Both the position numbers and the translations under genes were made by a program. Of a stretch of 64,000 nt of DNA, positions 3,818 to 56,951 are shown one piece after another (the first letter of the stretch is position 1; each line of letters starts with the position of its first letter). The DNA comes from Yuukianura sp. NJ FZ-2021. Lineage: Eukaryota. The stretch covers positions 496,001-560,000 of the forward strand of contig JAJCTO010000010.1 in the NCBI GenBank assembly GCA_046563655.1, read 5' to 3'. The notes beneath the pieces were generated by a model. The model made no database searches. It was given only the letters and a program-made list of their open reading frames with translations, and was not told the DNA's origin.

Positions 3818-3863
3818 AGCTTAAGTGCTGAAAAGCATTTAAGTTATTTTGAAGTCCCTGCAA

Positions 3864-4277: not shown

Positions 4278-4289
4278 GCGTTTTCAAAA

Positions 4290-32600: not shown

Positions 32601-33675
32601 TGTTACACCTGGAAAAAGTGCATGAAGGTAGTTTTAAGATGAGATATTATTATTATTTGTATTAGTTCATTCATTTTGCTGTTTTCAAAATGTTGCAAAA
32701 ATTTAGTCAAATTGTAGAAAAACTTAAAGTGTCGTAAATTTGATAGAAAAGACTTTGGCGTTGGCATTAATGGGATCAATAAGGTTAAGCTCTAAGTTGC
32801 AGATGCATTAGAGTGCATGGGAAGACACCAGATTCAAGTCACCAGCAATTGAGATTGCTGTTGGCTTGAACATGGTTTTAGATTATAAAAATACAAAGTT
32901 GCGAATTTCCCAAAATTTTGCGAAAAAATACAATGTCAAGAATTGCAGGGTAGCAACCAAAAGTAACATCTATAAATATAGGGTGCAAGCATGCAGACAT
33001 TCGATCATTTCCTTCAGTTAGATTTTCAGTTTAAGTTTACTTCTTAGTTAAAGTTCTCTTTAAAAATTTTAAGTCATAATTTTCTTTTAAGACAAATAAA
33101 ATTTCGAAAATTCAAAAGTTCGATTCACTTCCGTCTCTCTCATCTACAACCAGCCAAGGAGCTAAGCTAAGCCAGGGAAAGATTCAGCGAGACTTGGACC
33201 CTTCGTCATCTGCATTCGACAGCCGAGGTAAATAACAAAGCAAACGATTCGATCATTGATTTGGGATTCAGAGGGACCGGGACTGGGAAGGGTGCAGGGC
33301 CTGTCGGCTCCTGGACGGGTTCACCCGTCAAAAGGTTAGGGCTCCCTCCACCGGAATTCCCTTCGTGCGCCTTGCGCCTCCGACACGGGCAGTTGCGACT
33401 GACCCAAGGAGGTGGGGCGTACAGTTAAGTGGGCCCTTGATCATAGGTGCTCCCTTTCAGCGTCCACTCCGCGCCACCGACGCGGGTAGTCTTTGACTGC
33501 CCAGGGTGGCGAAGTGGGTCTGCTGCCGGATCTACGGACCCCTTAAGGGTCAAACTTTCAATACCTACAAATACAATTGGCCTTTTTAGCGCCAGGTGAC
33601 CACGCTCCTTCGCTAAGTGGCCAATCGGGTAGGGCACTTATTCGAAGTGACCCCTTGACCTAATTGGCCCTTACA
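32601..33675 (+). repeat. 5' LTR of gypsy B (1075 bp)
   Basis: TATAAATA at 32971, initiator-like TCATTT/TCAGTT at 33005-33019, AATAAA at 33095, candidate splice donor GAG|GTAAAT at 33228. Confidence 0.9.
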
Positions 33676-34079
33676 AATGGTGCCCGATGCAGGGGTCGTA
33701 TGGTCAAAACGAAATTTTGGTCATGAAGCATTACGTAACTTGTCTTCAAAACATTTTGATTCAGTTTTAAGCGAACTTTCAAAATTCTGGATAATTAAAA
33801 TCGTCATAATTCAAAAAGTATTTTGCATAAGTGTTCCAAACGAGCAGGAGTAGTTAGGCAGGTTCTAGGCACCATTTTCCACTCATTACCAGCACATGCC
33901 CAAGGTCTGCGCGACGCATGCGCAGAACGAAAAAATTGACTTTCTTGCACTAAATTGTAGGGCCATGCATTAGAAACGCGTACTTTGTTTAGAGAAGCTG
34001 AAAATATTTTTAAAATTAATATAATAACTAAATAATTAAAATTTAACTCGTAAATTCAAATTAAATTTTGGATACGGGC

Positions 34080-34210
34080 AGTAATCCTCCGGTCATCCTC
34101 CAGTAATCCTCCTGTAATCCTCCGGTCATCCTCCTGTAATCCTCACTTCATCCTCATGTCAACCTCATGTCAACCTCATGTAAACCTCATGTAAACCTTC
34201 GTCATCCTCT
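34080..34210. repeat. 11-bp tandem repeats in gypsy B leader (ATCCTCCnGTn / AACCTCATGTn)
   Basis: Directly visible. Confidence 0.85.
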
Positions 34211-34622
34211 TCCATTTAAGCATCCCTTTAAGCACGTAGACTTAAGTAAAATCAGCGCAGGTCAGGTCAGTGACCCTTGACCTTTAGTTTAAATTCATTT
34301 TTTTTGCAATTAAGTTCAAAAATTTTTAAAAACAAAAAATCACACAAACTTTCTAAATTAAAATTCATTCAATTCTAAAATTTTTGAAATTAACATTTCA
34401 TCTTTAAATTCGAAGTTTTGAAATTCTATTTCAACATTTCGACTTACTTTGGTAAAAACTAAACCATAGTTAAAACAAAATCTGACATTAAGTCAATCAC
34501 TTCGCTACATTCCAACTCTTTCTTGTCTCTATTTTGTTTAGAATAAACTGCGCCCTTAGCTTTTGAAAAAAAAAATTCTGGATCCAATTGATGTAGTTAG
34601 GCATCTCCATTTTACATTCATT

Positions 34623-35168
34623 ATGAGTATTCTGTTTAGGACTTGTGACGGGACTCTCCCGCAATCAGATCAGAGACCCTTAATAATTGCACACGTCACT
34701 AATAATTACGGAGCCTGGGGTAAGGGATTCTGCAGTCAATTATCATGGCGATACCCGCTTGTAGAATTGCATTTTAGAGCTGAAGGCTGGAAGGCCAGCC
34801 TAGGAGATATACAGACTGTTCCAATTGGTGAAGGGCTTCAGGTTGTTAATTTGTTCGCTCAACGCGATCCTTGGCATCCTGTTCCTATTTCCTATTATTC
34901 GTTAGATAAGAGTCTTGAGAAGCTAGGCGAATTAGCTAAAAATACAAAGGCCATTGTTCAGATGCCCTTAATAGGCACTGGATGTGGGCGCGGGTGCTGG
35001 GTGGAAGTAGAAAAGCTCGTTTGGAAGCATTTATGTAATAATAGGATTGATGTTCTCGTATGCTTGGAACGCAAAGTCGATTCCAACAATCAAATTATCA
35101 CACACAATTGTTTGACTAATCATCGTCATAACCCAGAGGCTCACTCTGGAATTTATCATTATCAGTAA
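34623..35168 (+). CDS. Macrodomain protein, TARG1/Poa1p/DarG-type
   Basis: IIAHVTNNYGAWGKGF, VVNLFAQ, MPLIGTGCGRGCW motifs. Confidence 0.85.
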   Translation: MSILFRTCDGTLPQSDQRPLIIAHVTNNYGAWGKGFCSQLSWRYPLVELHFRAEGWKASLGDIQTVPIGEGLQVVNLFAQRDPWHPVPISYYSLDKSLEKLGELAKNTKAIVQMPLIGTGCGRGCWVEVEKLVWKHLCNNRIDVLVCLERKVDSNNQIITHNCLTNHRHNPEAHSGIYHYQ

Positions 35169-36690
35169 TTCTATTCTAAAAATTACCCTGAGACATGGGA
35201 ATTAACGATGTCGTTTTCGACGTCGTTGTCGTCTTTACTTTTGTTTCCGTCATAATAAGTTTCAATGACAACCCAAGTTGGTACGTCGATAATTGAACCC
35301 CATGATCATATTCTGTTTGAATTTTGAAATAGTGAGGTTGTCTAAAAATGAAGCGTTCCGTTTAAAAGTATGCGTACACGCAGGATGGAATGGCGTTCAG
35401 CTTTCTCTTTGTCTCTTTGGCACTTAGTGATTTGAAGTTTACTTGGAACTTTAGGTTAGGTAAGATAGTTAAGCATGGTTCATACGGGTTAAGTAGTCGG
35501 TCGACCCAGGTCAGAATAGGCTCAACTAAGGCTCAACACCCAGTTCTACCTCAGGTATTCCTTGTACATAACATAGCTTACAGATAGGTCATATTAGATT
35601 ATAAGGCGCCACTCATAGCTTTAGGAAATGATCCCATTCTTAGCGCGGACTGGCTAGAATGTAATATTAAGTGTAGCAAGGATTTGCGCAAAGGTGATGC
35701 CGTGTTTACGAAGGAGACTTAGATCCGAAAGGTTAGGTCAAGGTCGGGGTGATCTTAGGCAACTGTCTAGAATGACGGGGCTGGTATTTGGGCGTGATGC
35801 CTACCAGCTGCCCCTTCAACAAATAATCCGAATCGAAGTGGATACTGAAATAGGCCCTCAGGCGGAAACTTCGGAGTGAGGTAGGCTCATTTGTAAAATC
35901 AAGCTAGCACTAGGTCACGGTTAGGGTTTAGAGTAGCAATGGCTCTGCCGAATCTATTAATCTTAACGCATAATTAAGTCAATTTATGAAGGAATTTCAA
36001 TAGTAGGTATCTCTTTCAGCGGTGTGAGCTAGCTCAGGATCCAGCGAGGACTCACGATTTCGTAACGATGTTAAACGGGTCAGGAGAGGTAGCTCTTTCC
36101 GCAAGTATTTCATAAAAAGGGGTTTGTTACAGTTCATGAAGGCCGCTTTATTTAAATTTAGGTCGGAATCAATGCACCAGGATTAAGCTCCCTGTTTTGT
36201 GCTCTGACCGGGTCAATGACACTTGTCCTGAAGAAACAAATCCCGTGTCAATAATTAACAGTTTGTTTGCTTGTATCTATTATGCCATGAGTGGTGACAT
36301 GTTTCTCCAGAGGGCCATGAACTGGGGAGATACGAGCTAACTACTTTGAAATTACCTAGGGATTTTATTTGAAGCATTGCCGTGTGTGGGCTGCTTCTTG
36401 TAACTTATGAAAGTGGAAAAAGCATTGCCGTGTTTTAGGCTGAATCCCTTCAAGTTGCTAAGGACTTATGAAGTTTAAATTGGTCGTATTTATTATGAGA
36501 AGTTTCATTGTTCATCTGAGAAGTTATAACATTTTGCGCATCCCAGCAGTGGAATTGTGGCATTAATTGTTTTTGTTTGAAAGAATAACAGAACATTGAC
36601 CTCCCGGAAGTCCCTTGATAATTCCACTCACTGGCGTGATCTACTTCCTAGAAAAAGGAATACGAAACTCCCTCAACTCCCAGCTCAACC

Positions 36691-38031
36691 ATGCGTCTGT
36701 TCGTGCTACTACTATTTATTGTTTCGGGTTACTGTAGTTACCTTAAGTGGGAAGGTCCCACTACCATTCACTGTCACGATGATGAGCGTAGCAAGAATCC
36801 ACCACGTATCAAAAGATACATTCCTTCAAATACCCCTTGGATCAAACGGAACATTACTTGGTCCATTGCTAACGTCCCATTACATTTAAATCTTAGCATT
36901 GTTAAGCTTGAAGCTCGACTGGCAATTGCTAAGTGGCAAGCAGCATCCAACTTAAAGTTCGAAGAACTCGAGAAACCAGCGCAAGCGGACATTCGAATCA
37001 GTTTTGAAAAGTTAAGCCACAATGATTCCGCTCCATTTGATGGAAGAGGTGGAGTGTTGGCTCACGCTTTCTTTCCAAGTGAAAGTCTGCTTGGAGGCGA
37101 TATACACTTTGACCTTGCAGAAAATTGGATCGTTGGTAAAAATGGAAAGGGAGTTAGTTTCTTTTCTGTACTATTACACGAATTCGGACATGCTATTGGA
37201 CTACGTCATTCCGACGTCCGTGACGCGATTATGACAGCATTTTACCGCGAATATGATTATTCAATTCGGATCAGTGACGATGATAAACGAGCTCTACAAT
37301 TTCTCTATAAAAATGCACCTAAATACGCGCCAATTCGGAAAAGTAGTTGGACAAATGATGACAATTTGGAAAAGAGCTTATGCCAAACAAATTACCGAAC
37401 TATTGCCAAAATTTATAACGAAATTTACCTTTTCGCGGACAACTATCATTATCGAATCGAAAACGGAGAAGTTTTTCTCTCCCAGCGAATGTATAATCAC
37501 AAATATTTTCAATATTTCCCAGAACATTTAAAATCTGACTTTGTGTTTCAATACGATCGAATGACTTACATTTTTTCTGAAGGGAAATATTTTAAGTACA
37601 TTTTTGGCGCAACTTTGGATAGGGGCTACCCGCGTAGCATGTCAAAGCTCAATTTAGCAGCCAATGCAAGCATCATTGGAGCCATGGAAATTGAGCGACG
37701 ACTCTATTTGCAAACAGCGACCGGATGGCGGTGTTACTATCACCACCAGCGCGAGTTATTCGAATCTTGTTGGGACGCGAAGGTCACTCAGCAATTGGCA
37801 CAGTTCACGACCCCTGTCACACAAATTGGAAGAAATGCTATGAATTTTAGCTTACTTAATGGCAATGAAGTTCTAACTTTTTCCTTGGACTTTGTGAAGC
37901 TTTCTTCTGAACCATTGATGGAATTTCTAAAAATTCCTTGTGTCGAAAATATTGTGGCTGGAAGTGCCGAGGCACAGCCGCAATGGTGGATTCTTTGTGC
38001 AGCTCTATTATTTATCTTATACCTTTTGTGA
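36691..38031 (+). CDS. Matrix metalloproteinase (M10A), intronless, with hemopexin-like region and hydrophobic C-terminus
   Basis: Signal peptide, furin site RIKR, FDGRGGVLAHAFFP, GGDIHFD, HEFGHAIGLRHS, Met-turn AIMTAFY, GYPR. Confidence 0.95.
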   Translation: MRLFVLLLFIVSGYCSYLKWEGPTTIHCHDDERSKNPPRIKRYIPSNTPWIKRNITWSIANVPLHLNLSIVKLEARLAIAKWQAASNLKFEELEKPAQADIRISFEKLSHNDSAPFDGRGGVLAHAFFPSESLLGGDIHFDLAENWIVGKNGKGVSFFSVLLHEFGHAIGLRHSDVRDAIMTAFYREYDYSIRISDDDKRALQFLYKNAPKYAPIRKSSWTNDDNLEKSLCQTNYRTIAKIYNEIYLFADNYHYRIENGEVFLSQRMYNHKYFQYFPEHLKSDFVFQYDRMTYIFSEGKYFKYIFGATLDRGYPRSMSKLNLAANASIIGAMEIERRLYLQTATGWRCYYHHQRELFESCWDAKVTQQLAQFTTPVTQIGRNAMNFSLLNGNEVLTFSLDFVKLSSEPLMEFLKIPCVENIVAGSAEAQPQWWILCAALLFILYLL

Positions 38032-38213
38032 GATACGTTAATTCTCCATTAAAAATGTCATAGTTGAGCACTATTGACTGGTTTTACCACATCATCGAAA
38101 ATGAAATGAATTTCGTGAATTGATGGGATTGAATGAACTTCGATTGTTCCAATTCCAAAAAGTTTTCAACCCTTTTTAACTTTTAATAGATTGCCTTGAG
38201 GCTGTAATAGCTC

Positions 38214-39787
38214 ATGAGCAAAGAAAAATCCAGTCGTCGTCTACAAAACAAACCGCCAGAATTTGGTCCAGAAGATTTAGAAGTTTTAGAAAGAGAGATC
38301 AGAATAGAAAGAAGCAAATCAAGATCACCCAGTACTGTTGAGATAGAAGTTAGCACTGAACAGACAGCAGAAGGCATTGTAGGGAAAATAGTTGTAGGAA
38401 GATCGGAGTCTGTAGGAACTCCTGATAGATTAGCGGTCGGATCTGTTGCTTCTGGGCTTAGCATCGCTTCCTGTGACGAGGAATTAGCGGAAATTAACGT
38501 TCCAATTCCACGAATTGAAGTTATTTCAAGTGAATCAGCCATGGCAGCTACTTCAACCCCTGTGGTTAGCGCGATTTCAATTTGGACACCTCCGGGTGAA
38601 CTGACCTTTAAAGGTCAACGGGGTGCCAAGGCAAATGAATTTTTGGACAAATTTAAAGCAATTGCTGTCTCCCAACATTGGGATGACGCAACTAAAATTG
38701 AGCATTTTGGCCTTTACTTAATTGGGCCTGCGAAGATGTGGCTATCAACATTTAAAAATGAATGGAAACGTAATCCTTTGAACAAAAACGCTCAAGGAGA
38801 CGTTAAGACTTGGAAACAAATTTTCGTGACGAGTTTAAATCTCGTTTGACTAAAGACGCGTTAGAGGACAAATTAGCATCTCGCAAGAAGGACAAAAATG
38901 AAACTGTTGAAGACTATTACTATAACGTGATGAAGCTCTGTGACCAGCTTGAGGCTAGTCAAGGGTCTTCGATTAAAGAAGATGAGCGGATTTTGTATTT
39001 GTTGAAAGGATTGACCCCGGAGTTAGCTTGGGTCATCCACCAGAAAAGTCCATCGACTACTAAGGAGGTTCTGAGTGAATTGATTCGGAAAGAAAACTTC
39101 GATTATAGCTTCAAACGTAAAACAACGTTAATGCAAAATAGAGAATTAGAAGAGGCTGTTCAGACTATTTTTCCACTGGCAATTAGCGACGAATCAGGTA
39201 ATGACAAGCAGTCAATGACGGTTCAAACTTCTCAGATGGGTTATCAGCGGAGTTCTACCATTCCTGGTTCTCGAGGACGAGTACCTGGAACTCAACATTC
39301 TCGGGGAAGCGGTCAAGGATCTGGAATTCTCCGTGGCCAAGGAAGCCGTCCAACGGCAGTCTACACTCGCTCTTATCAACCTCGTCACACTGCTCATGCG
39401 GTTGGATTTGAGCCAATTCCGCAACAAGTTGCTCATTGTTACAGCTGTGGGTCAAGCTCTCACCCCACCAGGCAATGCCCGGAAGAGAAGATTTTGCGTA
39501 CTCCGGCACGGCTTAGATGCAGCATCTGCGAGTCTACCATGCACATCGGTAGAACCTGCCCTCATCGCGAACAAGTCGCAGCTCGCCGTGCGTGTTACCA
39601 GTGTGGCTCCGAGAATCACATGAAGCCTCAATGTCCGCAGCTTCAACGGAAATCTCCAGGTCCTCGGCAGATGAATTGTCAAATCTGCAAATCAAACGCT
39701 CATCCTACTCAGGAGTGCCCGCACAAACCCAAACCGGAAGCTCAGTTGGAAAAGAAAGTTGTGGTAAAAGAGGAGCGACGCCAGTAG
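38214..39787 (+). CDS. gag: Gag of gypsy B (one frameshift near 38820), four CCHC knuckles
   Basis: WDDATKIEHFGLYLIGPAKMW; ETVEDYY...LLKGL; four CX2CX4HX4C motifs. Confidence 0.9.
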
Positions 39788-39789
39788 GA

Positions 39790-42700
39790 GGGACTGACGT
39801 CGATTTGAATCTTAATTCCTCCGTAGTACATAGTTGTCATGCAGTAGAGCCATCAGATTCTTTTCCTGAATTAAATTTTGGTAACGTGGTTACCACAATC
39901 TATTTCGTTGATGGCGATAAACGACGTCGTATTACTGGATTAATTGATACAGGAAGTCCAGTTAGTATAATTATGGCTCAGCACGTTCAAGCTCACGAGT
40001 TGGTTCCTCAACTTCCTGGTCTTAAACTATTATCCGCCAATCAGGCTAAAATTCCAATCTTAGGTTCTGTCAAAAAGTCATTAGTTTTCTGAAAATCTTC
40101 TGATCAAGTTTTGTCTCATTCCTTTTTAGTTATTGAGAAATGTCTCTTTGATATAATTTTGGGAAACGATTTCAATTCCAAAAATCTTCTCACCCTTAGT
40201 TTCAATTCCGCTCCAAAGGGATACGGAAGTTATTCATACGTCGGCATGAGAGTTCCACGACCTTTCAAACTATTTTCAAACGATAGCTTAGGACTACCTC
40301 TTCATCTACATCACCTTCAGCGGCAAGGTTCTAATAAATTGAACCATCATACCCCAAGGTCATTACCATTTCTGAGGAAATTTTGCCTCCATTTTCTACA
40401 ACCAAAGTTCTAGTGAAGCCAGTCACTCCTATCACAGGAACCTTGTCATTCGAACCAAATCAGCATCTTTTAGATCGACTTGGGCTCTGCATTCCATATT
40501 TAGCTCATATTGAAGAAGGCTGTTTTGAACTACCAATCGACAACCCAAGGCCGGTTCCAACTACTGTTTATGCTGGTGTTCACGTAGGAAATTTGACGCG
40601 TGTTCAAATCCGCGAGGTTGAAGCAGAGGACAATATTCGCCAAGCTAGGTTTAAATCCACGAAGGAAAATATTGATCAGATTATCATTAATCCTGATTTG
40701 TCCATGGCAGAACAGCAACAACTAAAAGATTTGATTCTTAAATACGGGGATACCATGGCATGGGACCTTGATCAGTTAGGGAAGGTGCAGGATGAATATT
40801 TCAAAATTGATACGGCGGATGCAGCACCCATTTCCAGTGCCCCTTACAAAAAGGCGCCTCATGAAAAACGCATCATTGAGGAGGAAGTGGATAAATTACT
40901 TAACGCAGGGATAATTCGAGAAAGTACTAGCACTTGGAGTGCAGGTGTCAGCTTAGTTAGACGTCCAGGTAGTGACAAAGTTCGAATGCTGATTGACTAT
41001 CGTCGCTTGAACAATGTAACTAAAAGCCAGTCTTATCCAATGCCCGTCATCAACGAGATTCTTTCTTCTTTCACCGGATGTAAAGTTTTCTCTTCCTTAG
41101 ATTTAGCCTCTGGCTACTTCCAACTTAAAGTCCATCCGGATGACGTGGAAAAGACAGCTTTTATAGTACACAATGGAACGTATGAATATCAATACGTCAG
41201 TTTCGGAATGAAACATGCTCCTGCCTTTTGCAATTCGGTCATTACGAAGGTGTTAGGTCGGCGTCTTTACAAATTTGCTCAGGCTTATTTAGATGATCTT
41301 TGCATTCACTCCAAGGACTTCAAAACTCATTTAGAACATCTGGAAGACGTTTTTCAACAATTTCAAAGATTTAACCTCACTTTCAATCCCGCAAAGTGTC
41401 ATTTTGGAAAAAGTAAATTAGAGTTGTTAGGTCACGTCATCTCTGACAAAGGCATTTCAGTTTCTGATTCCAAAGTGAAAGCGATATCTCTCATGCCTCC
41501 GCCTAGGAATGTTGGCGAAGTCAGGACATTTCTCGGTTTATGCGGATTTTACCGTCGATTCATTTTAAATTATAGTCAAGTAGCTAAATCACTCACCGAC
41601 CTCACAAAGAAAGAGAAGCCATTTCAGTGGAGTTCAGATTGTCAGGAAGCTTTTGAAACACTTAAAAGTAAACTTATGACAGCTCCTATTTTAGCCTACT
41701 TTAATGAAAATTTTGAATTAGAGCTTCATACGGATGCTTCCAACAAATGTATCTCGGCAATTTTAAATCAAAGGAACTTAGACGGAAAATTAGAAGTCGT
41801 TGCGTATGCTAGTCGAACTTTGAAGGGTGCGGAAGAGCGTTACAGTACAACGGACAAAGAAGCTCTCAGTGTTGTCTGGGGACTAGAGAAATGTCGTGAG
41901 TACATTGGATTTCGGCCATTGATCATCGCGGTCGATCATCATAGTCTTTGTTATTTAAAAACATGCAGGAATTTCAGAAATAGTCGGTTAGCTCGATGGG
42001 CCTTACGTTTGCAGGACGTAGACTACGAGATTCGTCATGTGAATGGGAAAACTCACTATCAGGCCGATTGTCTATCCCGCTTTCCGATCGACGATGAACA
42101 AGAATTCAAAGATGACTTTCCGATTCCTTGGTTTCTTACTACGGTTGTCACTCCTACCGATTCAACCGACGATCTTCAGCGCAATCAATTGGCTGACTCC
42201 AAATTGAAATTTATTATCGAAAAACTTAAATCACATTCTCACCATAAATTCTCTAAAAAGTTTATTCTTGACGATGATTTGCTCAAGTGGAAATGTATCA
42301 AAACCGGGAAACTTTTACCCGTAATTCCTCATCTTTCAATTCCTGAGATACTGCCACGCTTCCATGACGACATTCATTCTGGTCACATGGGAGTAGAGCG
42401 GACTCTGGAGCGCGTTCTTCGCAGTGTCTTCTTTTTCAAAATGCCTAAGATCGTTGAGAATTATGTCCGTTGTTGCAAAACGTGCCAGCTTCGGCGCAGT
42501 AGAAATACGAAACCTTTGGGGAAATTGTGTCCTATTTCCGTAGGTCAAATGTTCGACCGAATGAGTTTAGATGTAATTGGACCGCTGCCATCGTCCAAAC
42601 GTGGTAACAAATTCATTGTCGTTGCTGTAGAATTTCTTTCTAAATTTGTTTTCGCTCGAGCTATCAAAAAGCAAACTACTAAAGTAATGTTAGATTTCTT

Positions 42701-43721
42701 GACTGACATTTTTCAGACTCATGGACTACCAAAAACTCTTCTCAGCGACAATGCTTCAATTTTTACGTCTGACTTTTTCAAACAGTTTCACAAATCCCTT
42801 GGGATTATTAACGTCTTTTCCAGTCCGTACCATAGTCAAACTAACGGGCTCTGTATCTCTCCGAACAGAAGTATTGAAGAAGTTTTAACGAATTACACTT
42901 CCGTGTCTCAGCGAGATTGGGACAAGTATTTAGGGTCTGCCGTTTTCAGCCTAAATACAGCGGAACACAAAGAAAGCACTGGTTTTTCCAGTTTTTACAT
43001 CATGTTCGGTCGCCACCCGAACCATCCGTTGGATCTTGTCTGGGATACTGTACAATCCAACGACGACATTCCCACTCGCATACGCAAAATGCAGGAAGCT
43101 AGAGATTTAGCCAAACTTGGCATTGAAAGAGCGCAGGCTCGTCAGGCCAAGTCCTACGATGCCAAGCGTCTCCTTGATGAATTTGAAATTGGTGATTTGG
43201 TTTTGGTCAAGGTGACCAAGGTGGAACCTGGCAGGTCACGGAAATTGTGTTTCCGTTACCGCGGTCCTTATGTTATTGTTCAAAAGAACTCTGCTCTGTC
43301 TTACAAATGCAAGCCTCATAAGCAACAAGATGACTCAGATCCGATTCGCGTTCATATTTCTAATTTAAAGAAATTTGTAGACAGTGAAGGTATGACCCAC
43401 CTTTGTCACAAGCCGTGTTTGTCTGACCCGGGACGGGCAGATTCTAAACCGGGAAAGCTTCCTATGGAAGTGGTAAAGATAACGGAAACCCCAGAAGCAG
43501 ATCCTTCGGATAAGTTGATTCCGGATGATCTGTTAGAATTTGAGTTTGAAGAACCTACAGTAGATAAAGTGAGCTTAGGCTCTGAATCTGAAAGTGAAAG
43601 TAGTGAAAATGCATCATCAACTGAAGACGAGGAGATTGAAAAAGATAAACTTGAAAATGTTGTTAGAACTAGGGCTGGAAGAGAAGTCAAGAAACCTGTT
43701 AGGTTTGGAATAGACTCATAG
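39790..43721 (+). CDS. pol: Pol of gypsy B: protease (frameshifted near 40090 and 40380), RT, RNase H, integrase
   Basis: LIDTGS and IILGNDF protease; LDLASGYFQ and YLDD RT; TDAS and ADCLSR RNase H; HSGH..CKTC, DDE and GPY integrase. Confidence 0.95.
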
Positions 43722-43763
43722 TTATTCTAAAAGGGAAATCGAATGGAATAGAAATTAATTCAG

Positions 43764-46007
43764 GTTAAGCTCGAGGTCGTACTGATTGTAGCGGCTTTTG
43801 CGAGTATTACCACTTCCCAGAAAAACTCAATTTATCCGACTCAAGTTCGAGTCACCTCTGGAGCCTTCGTTCGAGAAATCACGGACGCGGAGCTTTACAC
43901 GGCAACTGTTCCTCTCATCTACGATTTAAATGTAACCTTTGCGGAAATCCCACAAAATTTATTTCGTTCCAAAATTTGTGAAACAAGCGCGGATGGATGC
44001 AGTTTTCAGATCACAATTCGCGATATGGTTAATCATGTTAGCCAGACTTTAAGAAACATTTTGAAAGACATCCTTCATGATCCATCCTCCGGAACAGCAC
44101 GAGAGTTCCTGGCCAGAGGACAGCGTTCTCTTGATTTAGAAAGTCTCAATCCTCTCAATCTTGTTTCCGATTTTTATTCATTCTGTTGCGGCTTTGTCAG
44201 CAAAAGAGACATGAAGTGCCTCTTTTCAAATGAAGTTGAAGTTAAAAAGTTCTTGGAAACCTTGAAAGGTTCAGTGGTGGCCAATAACCAAAACGTCATG
44301 ACCATCAAAGAAAGTTACGAACTGTTTCGTGGCAACGTTTCCCGAATTGTTAACCGAATCCATAGCAGCTTAGAATCACTAAGCCAAGAAATGAATGAAA
44401 CCATCACTGAAGAAACCGAAATCGCTAGACAGGTGAACGCATTGTCACGAGAAGTCAGCACGTTCCAGAGAGGTTTCATGCAAACATATTTTCATCTGAA
44501 TTCAATTGCCGAAATTATGCAGTTCACTGATCTTCAATCCCATTGTCGCAGTCATACAATTCCCTTGCTCGCCGTTAATCCCCAACGACTCACCAAAGAC
44601 TTACGAAACATCAACCGAAAAATTAGAAATGATGGTTACACCTTGGCCATTTCAGCAGAAGACGTTTCCAAATACTATAAATTACGAATAGCGGACTGCA
44701 CCTTCACTCCGGAAGGAAGAGTAATTTTTCGGGTTAAAATTCCTATTCGACGAATTGAAGAAAATTGGAAGCTATTCGAGATGGTCAACATTCCATTTGG
44801 CTTCAAAGGAAGTATTTGTATGATTCAGCATGCACCCACTTACGTAGCTGTTGCCGCTAACAACATCATCACCATCCAGGGAACTCAGCTGCACCAATGT
44901 CAGCCTCATTCCGGACTCTGTCTTGTACCTCAAACGAACAGCAATCCAATGGTCGGTTTCCTTTGCGTCAAACATCTGCTAAAAGGTTCAAGCGTTCGAG
45001 AACTAAATGATGTATGCATTTTTGAGTGTGTGTTGGGTAACAACGAATTAACGGTCACCCAATTAAGCTATGATACTTTTATTCTAACTGGAAAAGTTGA
45101 AGGCACCAAAATAGATTGTGGTGAAAGCAAAAGCTTTTCCGTGGGTCCGCCGACGGAAGGCGTGGGAAGCCTTCAGGTGAAATTAAGCTGTGATTGCTCA
45201 GTAAAAATTCCAGGAAGATCCCCAATTCGACCTCCATATCCTTGCCCGGACGACCTCGTAAACTATCCCACAGTCCATATTATAATTCCTACCGTCATGT
45301 CAAAAATTGATGTTATGCTAAAAGCCAACAATCGAGGTGAACCAGTTACTTTTCCCCACCTCCATGCAGTTTTCAATGAAACTTGGGACCTAGGTTCACC
45401 CCGCCTAAATTTAACAGAAGTCAGCAGAATTAAACAATTGGTAGTACCAAATTTAATTCACGTCATTGCTCCCACTACAGATACCATGCTGATAGTGTGG
45501 AACATAGCTTTGAGCGTCATTCTGGGATTCATGATGTACAAACAATGCTGTACCAACGGAATCGGCCCAGTCATAGGACTCGGATTGATGGACCGAATTA
45601 GAGGAGTCGCAGCACAAAGCTCGGAAGCCCATCACACCACAAACATTGTCATAATTGGAATTTTGTTTTTCCTACTGCTACTTGTTCTTCTCGTATGGTA
45701 TATTTACCTTTATCGAATCTGCTCAGAGCAAAGAAAGAACGAGTTCAACGTTCCCCCAGAGAAAAAGAGAGAAGGAGCCGATGTAAAGCCTGCCACCGAG
45801 ATTAAGGACGGAGCCTCCAAAGTTAAAATTCCCAAAGCATCTGCAGAAGTTAATTTGGAAGTGGGAATTGGAGAATCAAAGAAATTTTTAGTCCCAGAAG
45901 GAATGCCTTTACGACTCACAATGAGTCATGCTGAAACTCGCGTCCTTAAAAGCTTCCAGCCCAAACTTGATCCAACGTCAGAAACGACGGTTGAAACTTA
46001 TGTCTAA
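43764..46007 (+). CDS. env: Envelope fusion glycoprotein (baculovirus-F/errantivirus Env-like), probably spliced
   Basis: Frame is open 87 codons upstream of the 44025 ATG, starting after TTCAG with hydrophobic VVLIVAAFASITTS; furin-like RGQR; heptad region; Cys-rich ectodomain; YY..IFRVKIPI..LFEMVNIPF; N-glycosylation sequons; C-terminal transmembrane helices. Confidence 0.85.
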   Translation, partial: VKLEVVLIVAAFASITTSQKNSIYPTQVRVTSGAFVREITDAELYTATVPLIYDLNVTFAEIPQNLFRSKICETSADGCSFQITIRDMVNHVSQTLRNILKDILHDPSSGTAREFLARGQRSLDLESLNPLNLVSDFYSFCCGFVSKRDMKCLFSNEVEVKKFLETLKGSVVANNQNVMTIKESYELFRGNVSRIVNRIHSSLESLSQEMNETITEETEIARQVNALSREVSTFQRGFMQTYFHLNSIAEIMQFTDLQSHCRSHTIPLLAVNPQRLTKDLRNINRKIRNDGYTLAISAEDVSKYYKLRIADCTFTPEGRVIFRVKIPIRRIEENWKLFEMVNIPFGFKGSICMIQHAPTYVAVAANNIITIQGTQLHQCQPHSGLCLVPQTNSNPMVGFLCVKHLLKGSSVRELNDVCIFECVLGNNELTVTQLSYDTFILTGKVEGTKIDCGESKSFSVGPPTEGVGSLQVKLSCDCSVKIPGRSPIRPPYPCPDDLVNYPTVHIIIPTVMSKIDVMLKANNRGEPVTFPHLHAVFNETWDLGSPRLNLTEVSRIKQLVVPNLIHVIAPTTDTMLIVWNIALSVILGFMMYKQCCTNGIGPVIGLGLMDRIRGVAAQSSEAHHTTNIVIIGILFFLLLLVLLVWYIYLYRICSEQRKNEFNVPPEKKREGADVKPATEIKDGASKVKIPKASAEVNLEVGIGESKKFLVPEGMPLRLTMSHAETRVLKSFQPKLDPTSETTVETYV

Positions 46008-46148
46008 AAGTGACTAAAAAGATGTTCATATGAACTGTAGTAGTGGTCGAGAATTGTAGAGTTATAACTTTGGATCAGGTGTACACTGAATTGTGCCCTG
46101 TAATTTTAAAACAACAATGAAATTGTTAGTGTAACTATTCTGTTTTAG

Positions 46149-46331
46149 ATGGACTTAGAGCGCGAGCTTAGGAAGCGACGTCGAGCTCTCATGTTAGCCG
46201 CCATACGACTGGCCAAGCGCAGGCGAGATAAGACCGCTAGACTTTGTTTCTGTCAAGCAAAAATTCAGGAGTTGACTGTTAGAATTGAGGTTATGGAGAG
46301 AGAACTTGAAGAAGATAAAGAAAATGATTAA
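46149..46331 (+). CDS. Small basic/coiled-coil ORF (60 aa)
   Basis: ATG directly after TTTTAG; LRKRRR and KRRR basic patches followed by heptads. Confidence 0.45.
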   Translation: MDLERELRKRRRALMLAAIRLAKRRRDKTARLCFCQAKIQELTVRIEVMERELEEDKEND

Positions 46332-47478
46332 CAAAGTCAATTTACATTGTTTTACCTTGTGAAAGAAAACGTAGTAAAAACGTAGTGTTGCAATTTAATA
46401 GTGTCTCGTGGACCTTTGAGCTTATTAATGCCTATTGTACATGCTAAAAATATCTGTCAAATTGCGTCAACTTGGTTCATTCCATGCAGTTAATTCCGGT
46501 TCGGATTACAGTATTGGAAATTCTGTCAGATTAGTGACTTCGGTCTGATTAGAGTAATGGTATGAATTCGGATTTGTGCCTTCAAGGAGTGCTAGCATCC
46601 AGCGGCTCAGCCTCTAGTTAGTTTAAAACTAAGATTCAATCGACACATTGTCATGAAGAATTGTAGGTTCTTCTGTCACGGTCGCCGAATCCAATGTAAA
46701 CATTTGTTTTGTGAAATGACCCAGTCTTCTAATGCGAAGTTCAGCATTGGTTCATGAGTACACTGAATTTCACCAAATGCAGGAGATACAATGTTGTTGA
46801 ACACCGATTCTTGCCTTGACTACAATGTCAAAATAAACTAGATCTTAACGTATAAAATTATAATACTCCAAGGAATATTTCTTCAAAGCAGTTAGAACGG
46901 TTACAGTTGGTAAATCGTTCTGATTTATGTTGCCTGTTTCTTGAGCCATTACTTCTTGGCCAAAGTGTACACGTCAATTAATCCTGCATAACATGGTTGA
47001 AATTCGGAACAGAAGAATGTCTCCATTTTTAGTAAACAAATATGATTGAGTATTTTTTTACGTAGATTCAAAGAACCTTTCACGGGTTGTCGTAGAATGC
47101 GAATTCTTAGTAAGCACGGATTAGAAATCACTACAATGAAACAGCATTGCCACATGATTATTTAGTCTTTCCAAATCCAACTTCAAATGAGATCAAGTAC
47201 CTTGACCTCTAACCTGGTCGTCATGACGTGTTTTGGCATACCAGCCACATAATTAATTAATATTCAATATCAAATTGAAAAACTATTCATCATATTCGAC
47301 GAAGCTCTTTTTAATTTTAGGTTGACAAGGAAATCTCGCTTTATTCAAATCTTTAGACAAAGAAAATTCCTGAGTTAGCACTTGCAAATTCCCCAAAAAG
47401 GAAATTGTTGAGTTGGCTAGCTGTAAAGCAGCGCTCACGACGAATTCTTGACCTGCAAGGTCACACCGCCACGTCCGT

Positions 47479-48177
47479 ATGACCTCGGCCCCGCTGAAGC
47501 CTGGAACCCTTCACTTTTATGAGTTGCCAGAGCTAGTTTTGGACAAAGTCTTCCAGTTCTGTTGCGTCAACGATTTAACAAACGTAGTCGACGTGTTCCC
47601 CAAATTGTTAAAATACATAGAGGAAACGAAAAGACGGGCTCGAGCCAAACAAAATCAAATATTCAGTAATATTGTAATACTCCAGCGATCGTATTACCCA
47701 GGAATACTTACAGTTGACCCCAACAGTCATACAAAAATAGAACAATTCTTGGCAAAAATACCACTTAACGTTTTTCCAATTCTCTTAAGTCAATTTATTT
47801 TGGATTACAATCAACCACTCCAGCTTCACTGGCCGGCCATTGTAACTTTCGCTCCAGCAGAGTTGGAACGGATCTTGCGCAAATTCGGGATTGAATATTA
47901 TAACTTTCACGACTATTGTACACTTGTTCCTCTTGGGCCTCGCCCAAAACCATACCGTTTTCAAACATTAGCAAAACAAATTCGAAAGTATACAAAAGAT
48001 AGAGAAGACTTAGCGACTCATTTAGAAAGAATTTACGCGCGAGAACTTCCTATCTACTTATCGGCTTTTACTACCGCTCAACGTAAAGCCCGGCGGCGCG
48101 CTCGGCAATACTACACGCGTCGAGGGTTAGGAGTTACTGACGAGTGGCTCGATATCGCTCTGTGGGAATTTCTCTAA
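47479..48177 (+). CDS. F-box-like protein
   Basis: N-terminal FYELPELVLDKVFQFCCVNDLTNVVDVFPKL fits the LPxE..I..L...DL..V F-box pattern. Confidence 0.65.
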   Translation: MTSAPLKPGTLHFYELPELVLDKVFQFCCVNDLTNVVDVFPKLLKYIEETKRRARAKQNQIFSNIVILQRSYYPGILTVDPNSHTKIEQFLAKIPLNVFPILLSQFILDYNQPLQLHWPAIVTFAPAELERILRKFGIEYYNFHDYCTLVPLGPRPKPYRFQTLAKQIRKYTKDREDLATHLERIYARELPIYLSAFTTAQRKARRRARQYYTRRGLGVTDEWLDIALWEFL

Positions 48178-48191
48178 TTTTCTCCTGCATA

Positions 48192-49070
48192 ATGCTGCGA
48201 TTCAAACGGTGTGCCAGCATCGCATTGCCACTCCGACCAAGTTCTGGAATTCTTCCAGGATTTGTGTTTTTATGTCCAGCTGATACTGTTTTAGCGGCCA
48301 AGGGAACAGCAGTAATTCGAACCTTTATTGAAGTTGACCTCCCGGAAGGAACTTACGGTCGTATAGTTCCATCCAGCGAACTCGGAAATTTAATTAACGT
48401 AAGAATGGACTTAATTGAACGGGACCAGCGCGGACCAATCGAAATTATCCTTTATTCTCATGATTATACTAACCGAATTATTAAGCGCGGTCAACAAGTC
48501 GCTGAAATCATTTGTGAAAGATTCGATAAGTATGAGTTACAAGAAGTCGCACGGCTTCCGCGAAGAGAGGAAAATGTTATGCGCGCGACTTTTGCCGAGA
48601 CGGCCTGGATGAGGAAAGTCCGCTTCAACCTTCTCGTTATCCCGACGATATGCCGCACTCGGCGAACCTTCGATTTACGGCCAATAATTTTGGGCAACAG
48701 CGGCAATGAGGTTTTCCCGGAAAGAAAATTATTTCCAGTCTTGGAATTTATTGAAGAATCGGGAGATCAGACCCAGAGCCAGATCGGAATTTGGAGCGAT
48801 TTCTTTTTACAATTAGCTACAAGAGATATAGAAAACATTTGCCTTCATTACCAAATTTATCCTCCAAGCTACTATTTTAAATATAAAGAAATCATTTGCA
48901 TAGATTTGCTTCAATGTGATGCGAAATCCTCTTTCCGGCTTTTATTGAAAACGTTCGAGGGTTATCGTCGATATGGTAGATCAATTCGAGAGGAATTGAT
49001 GTACCACATCAGACTTAAATCCCGGGGAGACTACGAACTCCGACCCAGAAGTAATCGGTTCCTACATTAA
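48192..49070 (+). CDS. Degenerate dUTPase-fold protein with C-terminal extension
   Basis: LPEGTYGRIVPSSEL, LIERDQRGPIEIIL, IKRGQQVAEIICER align to dUTPase motifs 2-4 with catalytic substitutions; motif 5 absent. Confidence 0.8.
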   Translation: MLRFKRCASIALPLRPSSGILPGFVFLCPADTVLAAKGTAVIRTFIEVDLPEGTYGRIVPSSELGNLINVRMDLIERDQRGPIEIILYSHDYTNRIIKRGQQVAEIICERFDKYELQEVARLPRREENVMRATFAETAWMRKVRFNLLVIPTICRTRRTFDLRPIILGNSGNEVFPERKLFPVLEFIEESGDQTQSQIGIWSDFFLQLATRDIENICLHYQIYPPSYYFKYKEIICIDLLQCDAKSSFRLLLKTFEGYRRYGRSIREELMYHIRLKSRGDYELRPRSNRFLH

Positions 49071-49236
49071 GGGGATCCTAACTTGTCAAAGGAAAATTAA
49101 CTGTAGTCCCTGTTACACACGTAGTAAATAGTAGAGAAAAACTGTAGTTTATTTATAGTAACAAACATTATAAGGGAACGTAGTTCTAAATAAAAATTTG
49201 TAAAATGTAAATCCGAAATAATCAAATTGATTTCAG

Positions 49237-50463
49237 ATGTCTTCAATTTACACTTCTGCTAAGGATCGATGGGCTGAGAGATTGCGAATTAACCGTCGCA
49301 GAACCATTGTTTTGAATCACCAAATTCGGTCTCAGATTCGGGCAGTCCAGGGTGCCTCCTTAATTTGCTCCATACATCCCTCTGCTCTTCCCAAAACTAT
49401 TCATCATCCCCACTCCTACTTTCATAGACATGAGCAGGTTCAAAAGTTTATTTCACGAATAGCCAGGCAAGAACCTATCGCAGTCACGTGCTTCCAAAAC
49501 GAAGAGACTTACTTAGGGGAGACTACAGCAATCGGCCTCTGCTCATTAGGAATGTCATGTGTCATTGAAACAAAGGAGCTTTATCTTCAAATCAAACCGT
49601 TCTTAGAACCAATTTTCCTGGACGCCACTACGCCAAAAATTTTTGCCTCCTACAGTGAGATTCTTTGGCTCATTCGAGATTTCGGCCTTTACACAGTAGC
49701 TGCCATTGACATCACTCAACTCAAGCTCACGCCAGCTTGGACACATGATATCAGTTTCAACCTTTTATGCGAACAATTCCTTGGAGAATCGCATCAAAAA
49801 CCGAAATTTCATGATCCCACTCTCCTCAAGCTATATACAGCCATGAAAGCACACACAGACACTCTGTTTCGCCTCTGGAAACGTATGAGGATTGGATTGA
49901 CAAAACGAGCTGATTTTGCAGATGTCATCAGAATCATGGTAAAAGCCTCGGGACAAGCTGCAAGTAAGCAGCTTAAATCACCTGGATTAGTAAAAGGCTC
50001 TCGACCGCTAATAGTTCCAGCAGACGTTCCTTCCCGCCGTTTGGACAAACTCATCAGCAATGTTATTATACGACTCGGCGTTATTCTTGACCAACCTCTC
50101 TCCAGTTTTCGCACTCGATATTGGGAATGGGCGACCGTTCAACAAAGTCACGCTCAGGCACGTGTGAATCGATTTCTCCAGTCATTCAAGCTACCTACGG
50201 ATCACCCATTGACTAAAACGGAAGTCATAGCCGAAATCAACAACCTCTTTATGGACGACATCGGTGCAGTAGCTTCATCCACTGGACACTCTCCACAACC
50301 AATCGCTTCACCCGAAGATAGCCCTCCTCCTGCGAAAACACCGCGATTGTCGGCTCCTCCTCCACCAGCAATTGCCGGTACCTCACGCAGCAGCATTCCC
50401 ATACCATCACTGGATCGTTCCTTTCGGCCTCCTGCAGTGCCTAACTGTAACAGTGTAACCTAA
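49237..50463 (+). CDS. Rrp6/EXOSC10-like DEDDy exonuclease-domain protein, predicted inactive
   Basis: TYLGETTAIGL, VIETKEL, FLDATTPKIF..SEILWLIRDFGLYTVAAID resemble Rrp6 SFLGLTCLMQI, IIDTLEL, LTDPAIVKVFH..SDIEWLQKDFGLYVVNMFD; ExoI VDLE reads VTCF. Confidence 0.75.
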   Translation: MSSIYTSAKDRWAERLRINRRRTIVLNHQIRSQIRAVQGASLICSIHPSALPKTIHHPHSYFHRHEQVQKFISRIARQEPIAVTCFQNEETYLGETTAIGLCSLGMSCVIETKELYLQIKPFLEPIFLDATTPKIFASYSEILWLIRDFGLYTVAAIDITQLKLTPAWTHDISFNLLCEQFLGESHQKPKFHDPTLLKLYTAMKAHTDTLFRLWKRMRIGLTKRADFADVIRIMVKASGQAASKQLKSPGLVKGSRPLIVPADVPSRRLDKLISNVIIRLGVILDQPLSSFRTRYWEWATVQQSHAQARVNRFLQSFKLPTDHPLTKTEVIAEINNLFMDDIGAVASSTGHSPQPIASPEDSPPPAKTPRLSAPPPPAIAGTSRSSIPIPSLDRSFRPPAVPNCNSVT

Positions 50464-50465
50464 CT

Positions 50466-51104
50466 GTGGTCACATTAACCAAACCACAACAGACAGCAAC
50501 CATTGTGCGACCATTCGAGGAAGAGTCTACTACCCCGCTCACTGCAAGTCACATTTCCGTTGACCCAGCACCTACTCCGACAATTGCAAGCAGCGAGCCT
50601 CAAGGATGTATCGATGAGCCGTATGTTCCTCGTTCATCTATTGAAACGGAACTTAGAGCTGAATTGGACAAATACAAAATCAAATATCTTGCCATGTCCG
50701 CCAAAGCCCGCACCCTAGAAATTGGGCTCGACCTATACAAATCCTCTCCCCGATCCTCTGAACGATCCTCTCTACGATCCTCTGCCTTAGCCGTTCCTAC
50801 TGCCATTCAAGTGAAGCTGCCTCCCCTCTGGACGCCTCCTGGTCCCAACAAGACGCCGGTTATGGCAGTCACGGCAATGTGTGCCCAAAACCAAGTTGGT
50901 CACACTCCAACTCCAGGGCCAGTTGCAGGGCCATTTTCCAGGCCAGCTCCAGGGCCAGTTGCTGGACCTTCTTCACGCCCAGCTCCAGTGCCAGCACTAC
51001 CTCCGGCAGCCAACTCGGTTGTTATCATAGACTCCGACGACGACGACACCATCTATCGCGCTTCGGACTCTGAAACCGATTACAGCTCCGACGAGGACGT
51101 CTGA
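50466..51104 (+). CDS. Pro-rich/coiled-coil ORF with acidic SIM-like tail, possibly the frameshifted continuation of 49237-50463
   Basis: No ATG start; ELRAELDKYKIKY coil; ends VVIIDSDDDD...SSDEDV just before the purine tract. Confidence 0.5.
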   Translation: MVTLTKPQQTATIVRPFEEESTTPLTASHISVDPAPTPTIASSEPQGCIDEPYVPRSSIETELRAELDKYKIKYLAMSAKARTLEIGLDLYKSSPRSSERSSLRSSALAVPTAIQVKLPPLWTPPGPNKTPVMAVTAMCAQNQVGHTPTPGPVAGPFSRPAPGPVAGPSSRPAPVPALPPAANSVVIIDSDDDDTIYRASDSETDYSSDEDV

Positions 51105-51121
51105 AATTAAACCGGGAAAGA

Positions 51122-51366
51122 TGTTACACCTGGAAAAAGTGCATGAAGGTAGTTTTACTCCGCGCCACCGACGCGGGTAGTCTTTGACTACCCAGGGTGG
51201 CGAAGTGGGTCTGCTGCCGGATCTACGGACCCCTTAAGGGTCAAACTTTCAATACCTACAAATACAATTGGCCTTTTTAGCGCCAAGTGACCACGCTCCT
51301 TCGTTAAGTGGTCAATCGGGTAGGGCACTTATTCGAAGTGACCCCTTGACGTAATTGGCCCTTACA
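51122..51366 (+). repeat. 3' LTR of gypsy B, internally deleted (245 bp)
   Basis: First 36 nt match 32601-32636; the remaining 209 nt match 33467-33675. Confidence 0.92.
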
Positions 51367-56384: not shown

Positions 56385-56951
56385 AATCAATCAATCAATC
56401 GTTTTATTTGATTTTGGCCAATGCCCTATCAATTACATTCCTGCAGTTCCATTAAGTATTAAGAATTAAACACCAGTGTGACCTAGTCAAGTGGTAAAAT
56501 GCTAAATTGAAAAGAAAATGAGTAAAGTATGTAACGTCAATCGAATATAAAAATGTAGTTGACACTGAAGGGAGAAGTAGAGTCATGGGAAAATTTACAA
56601 TCGAAAATCGTTCATTATTCATAGTCCAGGGGTCATCTGTCCAGCGTTGGCTCGAATATTGACAGCACTTTGTGGTGGATTTTTTGAAGTTTTTTGATGA
56701 AGGTGACATCCGAGGCGTTTAGGTTGGTCCAAAAGATTGGGCATTGGTTTGGCGGGAGTCTCAGTTGTATTCTGTGGGGTTCTGTAAGCGGACAGGTCCA
56801 GAGTGCATGGTAATATGAAAGTTGGTCCCCACAGTAAGTGCATCTCTTTTCGGTGAACTGACCGAAGTCAAGCCATTTCCGGTTGAAGTAGAGTAGGTTC
56901 GAGTTCAGTCTAATCTGAAGAATGGGAGTAGTGAGATAGGAAGGAAATCGT
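56385..56951 (-). mobile_element. 3' fragment of a non-LTR retrotransposon
   Basis: IRLNS...CTYCG..SYYHALWTCP C-terminal zinc finger, then 3' UTR, AATAAA and (ATTG)n tail. Confidence 0.7.

Follow-up and report, generated by a model that had tools for sequence, protein, structure and literature searches.

We analysed a window of 64,000 nucleotides (nt) of Yuukianura sp. NJ FZ-2021 (assembly GCA_046563655.1, contig JAJCTO010000010.1, positions 496,001 to 560,000 of the forward strand); all coordinates below are counted within this window. It contains an element of 18,766 bp (32601-51366), bounded by one pair of long terminal repeats (LTRs) and a 4-bp duplication. With a probability of roughly two in three, we read this element as the defective copy of an endogenous retrovirus that is large, carries env, is of Ty3/gypsy (Metaviridae) type and has two blocks of captured genes within the genome between the primer-binding site (PBS) and the polypurine tract (PPT). 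The first block, upstream of gag, encodes by its sequence a macrodomain and then a matrix metalloproteinase (MMP) that has a membrane tail, a furin-type site and an unaltered zinc site. The second block, downstream of env, comprises a small Arg-rich open reading frame (ORF), an orphan ORF, an altered dUTPase fold, a dead Rrp6-like fold and a Pro-rich tail resembling a SUMO-interaction motif (SIM).

The layout LTR-PBS ... PPT-LTR is of the tRNA-primer type, and the 4-bp duplication is of the integrase type. The macrodomain, MMP, dUTPase-like and Rrp6-like ORFs are all sense-oriented, lie inside the stretch from PBS to PPT and have no separate termini. The reverse-transcribed part of this Ty3/gypsy-type genome includes the cargo. 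LTR retroelements of animals are usually seen as gag-pol elements, sometimes with env, and enzyme cargo on both sides of the core is an unusual load.

Ends of the element and its insertion site

Self-BLAST and a repeat finder, both run on the window, showed a single pair of direct repeats around the element. The repeats match in two parts, 32599-32636 against 51120-51157 (38 nt, 100%) and 33466-33676 against 51157-51367 (211 nt, 97.6%). Self-comparison and base-by-base reading of the ends gave the features below. They confirmed the single LTR pair, PBS-like site, purine tract and ATGA target-site duplication (TSD) reported in a first-pass annotation of this DNA, with the correction that the two LTRs are unequal in length (1075 and 245 bp).

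32597-32600, no strand: TSD, 5' copy, ATGA, read directly
32601-33675, plus strand: 5' LTR, 1075 bp, TG...CA, from self-comparison and base-by-base reading
32637-33465, plus strand: block of 829 nt of the 5' LTR, absent from the 3' LTR, its edges without duplication
33678-33695, plus strand: PBS-like site TGGTGCCCGATGCAGGGG, an 18-mer starting with TGG, 2 nt past the 5' LTR, at motif level
51114-51121, plus strand: purine tract GGGAAAGA, adjoining the 3' LTR, read directly, at motif level
51122-51366, plus strand: 3' LTR, 245 bp, TG...CA, from self-comparison and base-by-base reading
51367-51370, no strand: TSD, 3' copy, ATGA, read directly, the same 4 nt as the 5' copy
51371-51812, minus strand: N-terminal half of a BEL/Pao integrase, the host of the insertion, from translation and the excision join
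32023-32596, minus strand: continuation of this integrase, with zinc finger CIVCKR followed by the core; beyond it, at 31394-32107, is DUF5641

When the element was excised in silico by joining 32600 to 51371, one continuous BEL/Pao integrase frame was obtained on the minus strand, which reads KYWII up to the joint and QGKRATKKVITKCIVCKR beyond it. The BEL copy carrying the insertion has another stop of its own. The uninterrupted site was also present in public contigs. These came from four runs, X1 to X4, of which three belong to one sample, possibly the source of the window itself, while X3 is a second organism from another study. In X3, 32596 is joined to 51367 (side 211), and in X2, 32598 is joined to 51370 (side 59). 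Both results support the insertion of an env-bearing Ty3/gypsy-type provirus into the BEL integrase gene as a single unit, with duplication of 4 bp, and the earlier claim that removal of an 18.8 kb unit restores the integrase holds.

The region is rich in repeats, and no single listed public contig spans the whole stretch, as could be expected if the assembly had joined unrelated repeats by mistake. But the matching TSDs and the exact restoration of the BEL frame require that both ends come from one insertion, and contigs of other runs bridge several gene junctions and fill all 30 bins of the stretch in X1 and X2. We therefore regard an assembly artefact as extremely improbable.

Over the 245 nt that they have in common, the LTRs differ by five mismatches and one gap (about 2% divergence). 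The 829-nt block is part of the LTR of this family in other copies: contig record 24 of X4 is continuous through 32601-32957, and several variant joints lie inside the block. Joints skipping about 250 nt of it (33026-33279) were seen in all four public runs, which means that the family has LTR length variants. Because the block occurs in the LTRs of other copies, we read the short 3' LTR as the product of a later deletion and not the long 5' LTR as the product of an insertion.

A tRNA scan of the window found no tRNA genes and a primer tRNA was not matched to the PBS-like site; the Rfam scan gave no match. The leader, which runs from the PBS to the macrodomain ORF, contains roughly twelve units of 11 nt (GTAATCCTCC-like) in an array at 34070-34201.

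Core genes, captured genes and their relatives

All 12 ORFs of at least 150 amino acids (aa) inside the element are on the plus strand, and the longest minus-strand ORF has 143 aa, which agrees with the first-pass description of a sense-oriented gene set. The genes, in their order along the element, are as follows.

34623-35168, plus strand: macrodomain ORF, 181 aa from the first ATG (phmmer against PDB, Atlas)
36691-38031, plus strand: MMP (matrixin) ORF, 446 aa (Pfam, PDB)
38214-38849, plus strand: gag, first part, frame 0, ending within the capsid domain (Ty3_capsid 0.0021, below cutoff)
38807-39787, plus strand: gag, second part, frame 2, with four CX2CX4HX4C knuckles (Retrotrans_gag 5.1e-4 and zf-CCHC 7.3e-4, both below cutoff)
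39553-40413, plus strand: protease, LIDTGS ... ILGNDF (motifs read directly; no Pfam match)
40338-43721, plus strand: pol, with reverse transcriptase, RNase H and integrase (H2C2, core, SH3), 1127 aa open (Pfam)
43752-46007, plus strand: env, F-type fusion glycoprotein, 751 aa open, with C-terminal transmembrane segment (Baculo_F)
46149-46331, plus strand: Arg-rich ORF, 60 aa, the coil ORF of the first-pass annotation, putatively coding, matching no family; TTTTAG directly before the ATG
47479-48177, plus strand: orphan ORF, 232 aa, with an unconfirmed F-box-like N-terminal motif
48192-49070, plus strand: dUTPase-like ORF, 292 aa, with a dUTPase fold in about aa 1-130 and an extension of about 165 aa (Pfam, PDB)
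49237-50463, plus strand: Rrp6/EXOSC10-like ORF of DEDDy fold, 408 aa; TTTCAG directly before the ATG
50451-51104, plus strand: Pro/Ser-rich ORF, in another frame and overlapping the end of the Rrp6-like ORF, matching no family, at motif level

Pol carries the Ty3-type domains in the order protease, reverse transcriptase, RNase H and integrase, and was recognised by the Pfam models RVT_1 (9.7e-26), RNase H (5.9e-32), Integrase_H2C2 (3.7e-15) and rve (2.6e-10). Env matched Baculo_F at 2.8e-8, with 33.3 bits against a cutoff of 24.1, and has an RGQR site followed by a conserved SFCCG segment. Search of the PDB by sequence gave nothing usable for env or gag.

This copy is defective and cannot replicate on its own any more. 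The frame of gag changes within 38807-38849, which cuts the capsid domain in two; an in-frame TGA (40090-40092) interrupts the protease between LIDTGS and ILGNDF; and the signal-peptide-like start of env has no preceding ATG, the first one being at 44025. Moreover, the Rrp6-like ORF and the Pro/Ser-rich ORF are in different frames, and the 3' LTR is shortened. The element is an old inactive insertion within a nest of other elements. A scan for programmed -1 frameshift sites found TTTAAAT at 38834, situated at the capsid split, as the only in-frame slippery heptamer, and none in the gag-pro and pro-pol overlaps. We read the frame change there as a mutation and not as a programmed signal.

Searching 5.8 billion proteins with pol, the best matches had 33-38% identity over most of the length and were of gypsy type, one of them named Ty3-I Gag-Pol. 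The named ones came mostly from pseudoscorpion, tick and spider (chelicerates), and no insect-labelled protein was among the 120 best. A profile scan of metagenome contigs found a closer sibling, locus L007 (5702 nt). Over 776 aa its pol has 60.6% identity to that of the element; env comes next, at 49.8% identity over 651 aa (48-50%), with conserved furin-type site (RGQR/RGKR) and cysteines. Both L007 genes are open. Its env (2735-4948, 737 aa) has an ATG before the signal peptide, as the env of the window does not, which suggests that L007 is a less decayed relative in its sample. A second locus (L010) is a pol fragment with 57% identity. Only these two of the 80 metagenome loci are close, and both are short; the 78 others are distant and mostly short. 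Neither viral contigs, searched with pol, with MMP and with an env alignment, nor prokaryote genome contigs, searched with the env alignment, held a relative. By this sequence similarity, the gag-pol-env core belongs to a lineage that is present in at least one other sample.

The macrodomain ORF was identified by phmmer against PDB entries, namely 5e3b (a solved structure from Streptomyces, 1.4e-13), 2fg1 (1.1e-12) and the macro domain of CHD1L (3.4e-4). Its segments NNYGAWGKGF and PLIGTGCGRG align to both ligand loops of solved macrodomains, and all 30 of its Atlas neighbours were Macro clusters, the best at 0.95. The Pfam Macro model did not match it, nor did a word search of the protein database. 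About 50 nt upstream of its ATG there is an AATAAA (34542) with a run of ten A 18 nt later (34542-34575), which may have arisen by chance or be what is left of a retro-copied end.

In the MMP ORF a signal peptide is followed by RIKR, by a catalytic domain containing HEFGHAIGLRHS and the Met-turn, and by hemopexin; the C-terminus is a hydrophobic tail. It matched Peptidase_M10 at 2.4e-46, hemopexin at 2.1e-5 and MMP-11 in PDB at 2.9e-33; aligned to MMP-11, the zinc site HEFGHAIGLRHS (HExxHxxGxxH) and the Met-turn AIMTAFY are intact. The pro-domain of matrixins carries the cysteine switch motif PRCGxPD. No such pro-domain was found here: PG_binding_1 did not match, and only about 35 aa, containing IHCHDDE, separate the signal peptide from RIKR. 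The database search with MMP gave 226 matches, none of them close; the best were cellular MMPs with 38-42% identity over about 37% of the length, and no viral protein was named among the 120 best. In a tree of 31 MMPs the branch of the element measured 4.5 substitutions per column (median 0.36), which is too long for this MMP to be placed. It would thus be an old and fast-evolving MMP, to judge from its sequence, in which the catalytic site is still kept.

The dUTPase-like ORF matched Pfam dUTPase at 1.7e-13 and, in PDB, the shrimp (1.1e-21) and Drosophila (7.9e-18) enzymes, while retroviral dUTPases reached only 0.01-0.02. Trimeric dUTPases share five motifs, among them one with the catalytic Asp and, at the C-terminus, motif V, which is Gly-rich. 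Compared with the shrimp and fly enzymes, motifs I to IV are changed here (AGFDL to PGFVFL, PRSGL to PSSEL, IDRDYRG to IERDQRG, RVAQL to QVAEI) and motif V is missing; the C-terminal 165 aa or so had no match in PDB. For the Rrp6-like ORF, 13 of 13 PDB matches were Rrp6/EXOSC10 in the same region, with a best E-value of only 4.3e-4, and Pfam DNA_pol_A_exo1 scored 0.0012 (19.1 bits, below the cutoff of 23.6). All five DEDDy residues are replaced: D and E of ExoI by T and F, D of ExoII by E, and Y and D of ExoIII by A and H. The labels pseudo-dUTPase and pseudo-Rrp6 of the first-pass annotation are therefore fair, and its macrodomain, MMP, gag, pro/pol and env are likewise supported by homology.

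The F-box proposed for the orphan ORF was not confirmed. Its LPELVLDKVF...NDL resembles the F-box consensus, but no Pfam family matched even at E<=10. Among 1.84 billion representatives there were 0 matches at E<=0.001, Atlas gave only leads at 0.86-0.89, where recognition is below its threshold, and the PDB sequence search gave nothing usable. The AlphaFold2 single-sequence models of this ORF and of the Rrp6-like ORF were unusable (predicted local distance difference test, pLDDT, 37 and 36). The small coil ORF and the SIM tail, also proposed earlier, do exist as sequence, and their identity stands at motif level only; the Pro/Ser-rich ORF ends with VVIIDSDDDD...SDEDV, a SIM-like motif with acidic tail.

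Linkage of the cargo to the element

Termini or TSDs belonging to the cargo itself had been named beforehand as the sign that would speak against one unit, and none was found around the cargo ORFs. There were no terminal inverted or direct repeats around the cargo blocks, no A-rich tails after the cargo ORFs and no LTR fragments inside the element (the best match, 13 nt, was at chance level), and no sequence of the interior is repeated elsewhere within the window. Each of the six cargo ORFs (181-446 aa) is open and reads in the sense direction. The codon usage of the macrodomain, MMP, dUTPase-like and Rrp6-like ORFs correlated with that of pol and env at 0.55-0.72 (+1 frames, -0.11 to 0.32), a likeness that is expected for host genes too. 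An 8-mer search upstream of the ORFs found none common to three or more of them.

The comparison with public contigs listed 32 pieces, and 958 others stand outside this list. A contig of 6240 nt in X1 (record 6) spans 42747-48986 and joins pol, env, spacer, orphan ORF and dUTPase-like ORF. It has 162 other letters (about 97% identity), and so the linkage from pol to the dUTPase-like ORF exists also in sequence other than this exact copy. Other contigs bridge LTR and leader (33627-34273), pol and env (43527-44012), env and spacer (45491-46076), and spacer and orphan ORF (47135-47666). There were several signs of further copies: the loose end past 51366 carries a different flank in X1 and X2; in variant contigs of X1 and X4, 275 nt of the Rrp6-like ORF are replaced by 15 letters; in others 102 nt are skipped between MMP and gag; and one pol contig has 87.5% identity. 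X3 has pieces of env and pol beside the BEL flank, and a 310-nt one among these is free of differences.

These data bear on the idea that one or both cargo blocks entered an ordinary provirus of 9-10 kb after its integration, as retrogenes or mobile elements. The absence of flanking termini, duplications, poly(A) tails and LTR pieces and the common sense orientation are contrary to it, and the contig of about 97% identity shows a linkage that is not private to this locus. The 829-nt difference between the LTRs does mean that the locus changed since the insertion, but the presence of the block in the LTRs of other copies points to a deletion in the 3' LTR. In its favour there remain the AATAAA at 34542 and the A10 at 34566 just upstream of the macrodomain ORF, and X4 record 24, which puts the macrodomain region beside an LTR start in a relative. 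Taken together, we find secondary insertion distinctly improbable.

Several points weigh against a retrovirus that carried its cargo as a regular part of the genome. No bridge between macrodomain and MMP, MMP and gag, dUTPase-like and Rrp6-like ORF, or Rrp6-like ORF and 3' LTR is among the 32 listed pieces, and the public runs, which may come from the source sample of the window, are not fully independent. X4 record 24, a diverged relative of 6.5 kb, has a macrodomain piece at 86% (34642-35776 region, including spacer at 83%) and about 850 nt later an LTR start that includes the first 321 nt of the 829-nt block; it could be a deletion derivative, a nested copy or insertion, or a relative with another arrangement. 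L007, the only cross-sample sibling, stops 750 nt past env, and those 750 nt are unlike the window's. Cargo homologues were found in 0 of the 80 metagenome loci, among which only L007 holds env, and no full-length sibling with the same gene order was seen. Genes upstream of gag are awkward for the translation of gag from genomic RNA. This copy is broken in gag by a frameshift, in the protease by a stop and probably in env, which lacks an upstream ATG. Among the listed differences (28 of more than 1400 inside the element, too few to judge), synonymous and non-synonymous ones numbered 2 and 5 in the cargo ORFs, 2 and 3 in pol, and 5 and 0 in env.

Part of this would also fit a one-off chimera, in which a standard gag-pol-env element gained host or foreign sequence by read-through or template switching, and the defective genome was copied a few times in trans with the cargo as a passenger without role. 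The defects of gag, protease and perhaps env are in line with such an origin, as are the loss of catalytic residues in two cargo genes and the 5 non-synonymous of 7 listed differences in cargo ORFs. An MMP that is at most 42% identical to cellular MMPs, with a branch of 4.5, and nevertheless kept a frame of 446 aa and its zinc site is unlike a neutral passenger. The six open, sense-oriented cargo ORFs and the macrodomain's two ligand loops, conserved against solved relatives, argue in the same direction. The cargo was seen in no relative beyond the organisms of the public runs; however, the search of 5.8 billion proteins gave no close relative for pol either, and cargo without relatives there is then to be expected. 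We think that such a chimera is unlikely, and keep to a large env-bearing retrovirus with two captured blocks. The complex provirus of the first-pass annotation is thus retained as an env-bearing Ty3/gypsy provirus with sense cargo between PBS and PPT, and given up as an intact copy.

Possible roles of the cargo and comparison with known elements

The cargo may have been captured long ago as intronless (retro-copied) genes of cellular type, and would have evolved fast since then, at the pace of the element; arthropod enzymes are the closest to its dUTPase fold, and retroviral dUTPases are remote from it. Its expression would depend on spliced or subgenomic RNAs; TTTTAG and TTTCAG before the ATGs at 46149 and 49237 are candidate splice acceptors and a weak lead in this direction. 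The MMP might act on the extracellular matrix, which would help enveloped particles to pass between tissues, and the macrodomain might act on ADP-ribosylation by antiviral poly(ADP-ribose) polymerases (PARPs). The pseudo-dUTPase and pseudo-Rrp6 could serve as decoys or binding modules that counter SUMO-dependent silencing or the surveillance of RNA in the nucleus. Such roles in tissue invasion and defence antagonism are suggested by analogy. In the PIWI-interacting RNA (piRNA) pathway, EXD1 and Maelstrom are inactive DEDD nucleases, as is noted in a passage of a paper on rotifer elements (PMC5408684).

More tentatively, at somewhat less than even odds, the element may stand for a lineage of complex Ty3/gypsy retroviruses with envelopes that has not been described so far and whose hosts are invertebrates, probably arthropods. 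It would stably carry both accessory blocks (the membrane-bound, furin-activated MMP with the macrodomain, and the pseudo-enzymes with the SUMO-interaction tail), would be the first known retroelement with MMP and macrodomain, and would use them, in the way of large DNA and RNA viruses, to cross tissue barriers and to blunt silencing based on ADP-ribosylation, RNA or SUMO. If this is true, invertebrate retroviruses reach the gene complexity of vertebrate complex retroviruses by capturing cellular enzyme genes, and retroelements join the viruses that use macrodomains and matrix proteases. It raises the questions whether a transposon-encoded macrodomain acts against PARP-based defence in an invertebrate, whether an element-encoded MMP helps an enveloped particle to reach the germline, and whether dead dUTPase and Rrp6 folds serve as decoys for RNA surveillance or for piRNA- or SUMO-dependent silencing.

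Vertebrate complex retroviruses (lenti-, delta- and spumaviruses) have small accessory ORFs 3' of env, probably expressed via spliced RNAs, and non-primate lentiviruses and betaretroviruses carry a dUTPase. The present element differs from them in its Ty3/gypsy-type pol, its F-type env and its cargo, which consists of cellular enzyme folds and lies partly 5' of gag. MMPs occur in insect DNA viruses, macrodomains in corona-, toga- and hepeviruses and inactive dUTPase-related proteins in herpesviruses, and they act on host tissue or defence. These viruses are not retroelements, and in sequence the cargo showed no relationship to their versions of these proteins. Ogre/Retand-type elements, giant Ty3/gypsy elements of plants, have one additional ORF upstream of gag. 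Such elements (PMC11963269, PMC7264820) are like the present one in their very long internal regions and additional ORFs; they lack env, and their extra ORFs are of other kinds.

The bdelloid rotifer LTR elements Juno, Vesta and TelKA (Rodriguez, Kenefick and Arkhipova 2017, PMC5408684) have captured a dUTPase domain, a DEDDy (RNase D/Rrp6-like) exonuclease ORF3 and, in a single lineage, an F-type env. Their dUTPase is inside pol, and their exonuclease has retained the catalytic residues (DEED) and is encoded by a single ORF3 downstream of pol. In the present element the dUTPase-like and Rrp6-like genes are separate ORFs after env with replaced catalytic residues, and it has an MMP, a macrodomain and orphan ORFs besides.

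Chary and Hayashi (eLife 2026, PMC13524379) report that Ty3/gypsy elements with env ("errantiviruses" in the wide sense) are widespread in invertebrates and often multi-copy. The present element shares with them the LTR-gag-pol-env layout and the glycoprotein F-type env; it differs by its 18.8 kb and by at least four homology-supported extra genes, two of which are upstream of gag. The main text of that paper contains none of the words dUTPase, metalloprote-, macro- and accessory. The genus Errantivirus is the insect clade of gypsy, ZAM and 17.6; the named best pol matches here were chelicerate and not insect. Our literature searches found no description of a retroelement with MMP or macrodomain, nor of an animal element that has such cargo ahead of gag; the supplements of PMC13524379, which lie outside these searches, could list longer elements. 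The first-pass claim of an undescribed combination is thus upheld, within these searches, for MMP and macrodomain in a retroelement, and it is not upheld for dUTPase and DEDDy exonuclease additions, which are known in bdelloid LTR elements (PMC5408684). Only part of the gene combination is without precedent.

The window as a whole is a nest of mobile elements. Another LTR element of large size (1474-15581) has LTRs of 549 bp (1474-2022 and 15033-15581, 98% identical, TG...CA) with TCAT on both sides, and encloses gag (4278-5687), an open pol ORF of 1718 aa (5510-10666) and then about 4.4 kb in which the ORFs match no Pfam family. On the minus strand, an ORF at 23553-24365 with a Pol_BBD domain (1.1e-15) is a fragment of yet another retroelement. 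Two ORFs, 56905-57789 (minus strand) and 59612-60406 (plus strand), carry a C2H2 zinc finger and a Pox_A32-like packaging-ATPase domain. Both are located in an inverted duplication (56952-58633 against 60481-58813, 96%), and between the two ORFs there are tandem repeats with a period of 84 bp (58185-59260).

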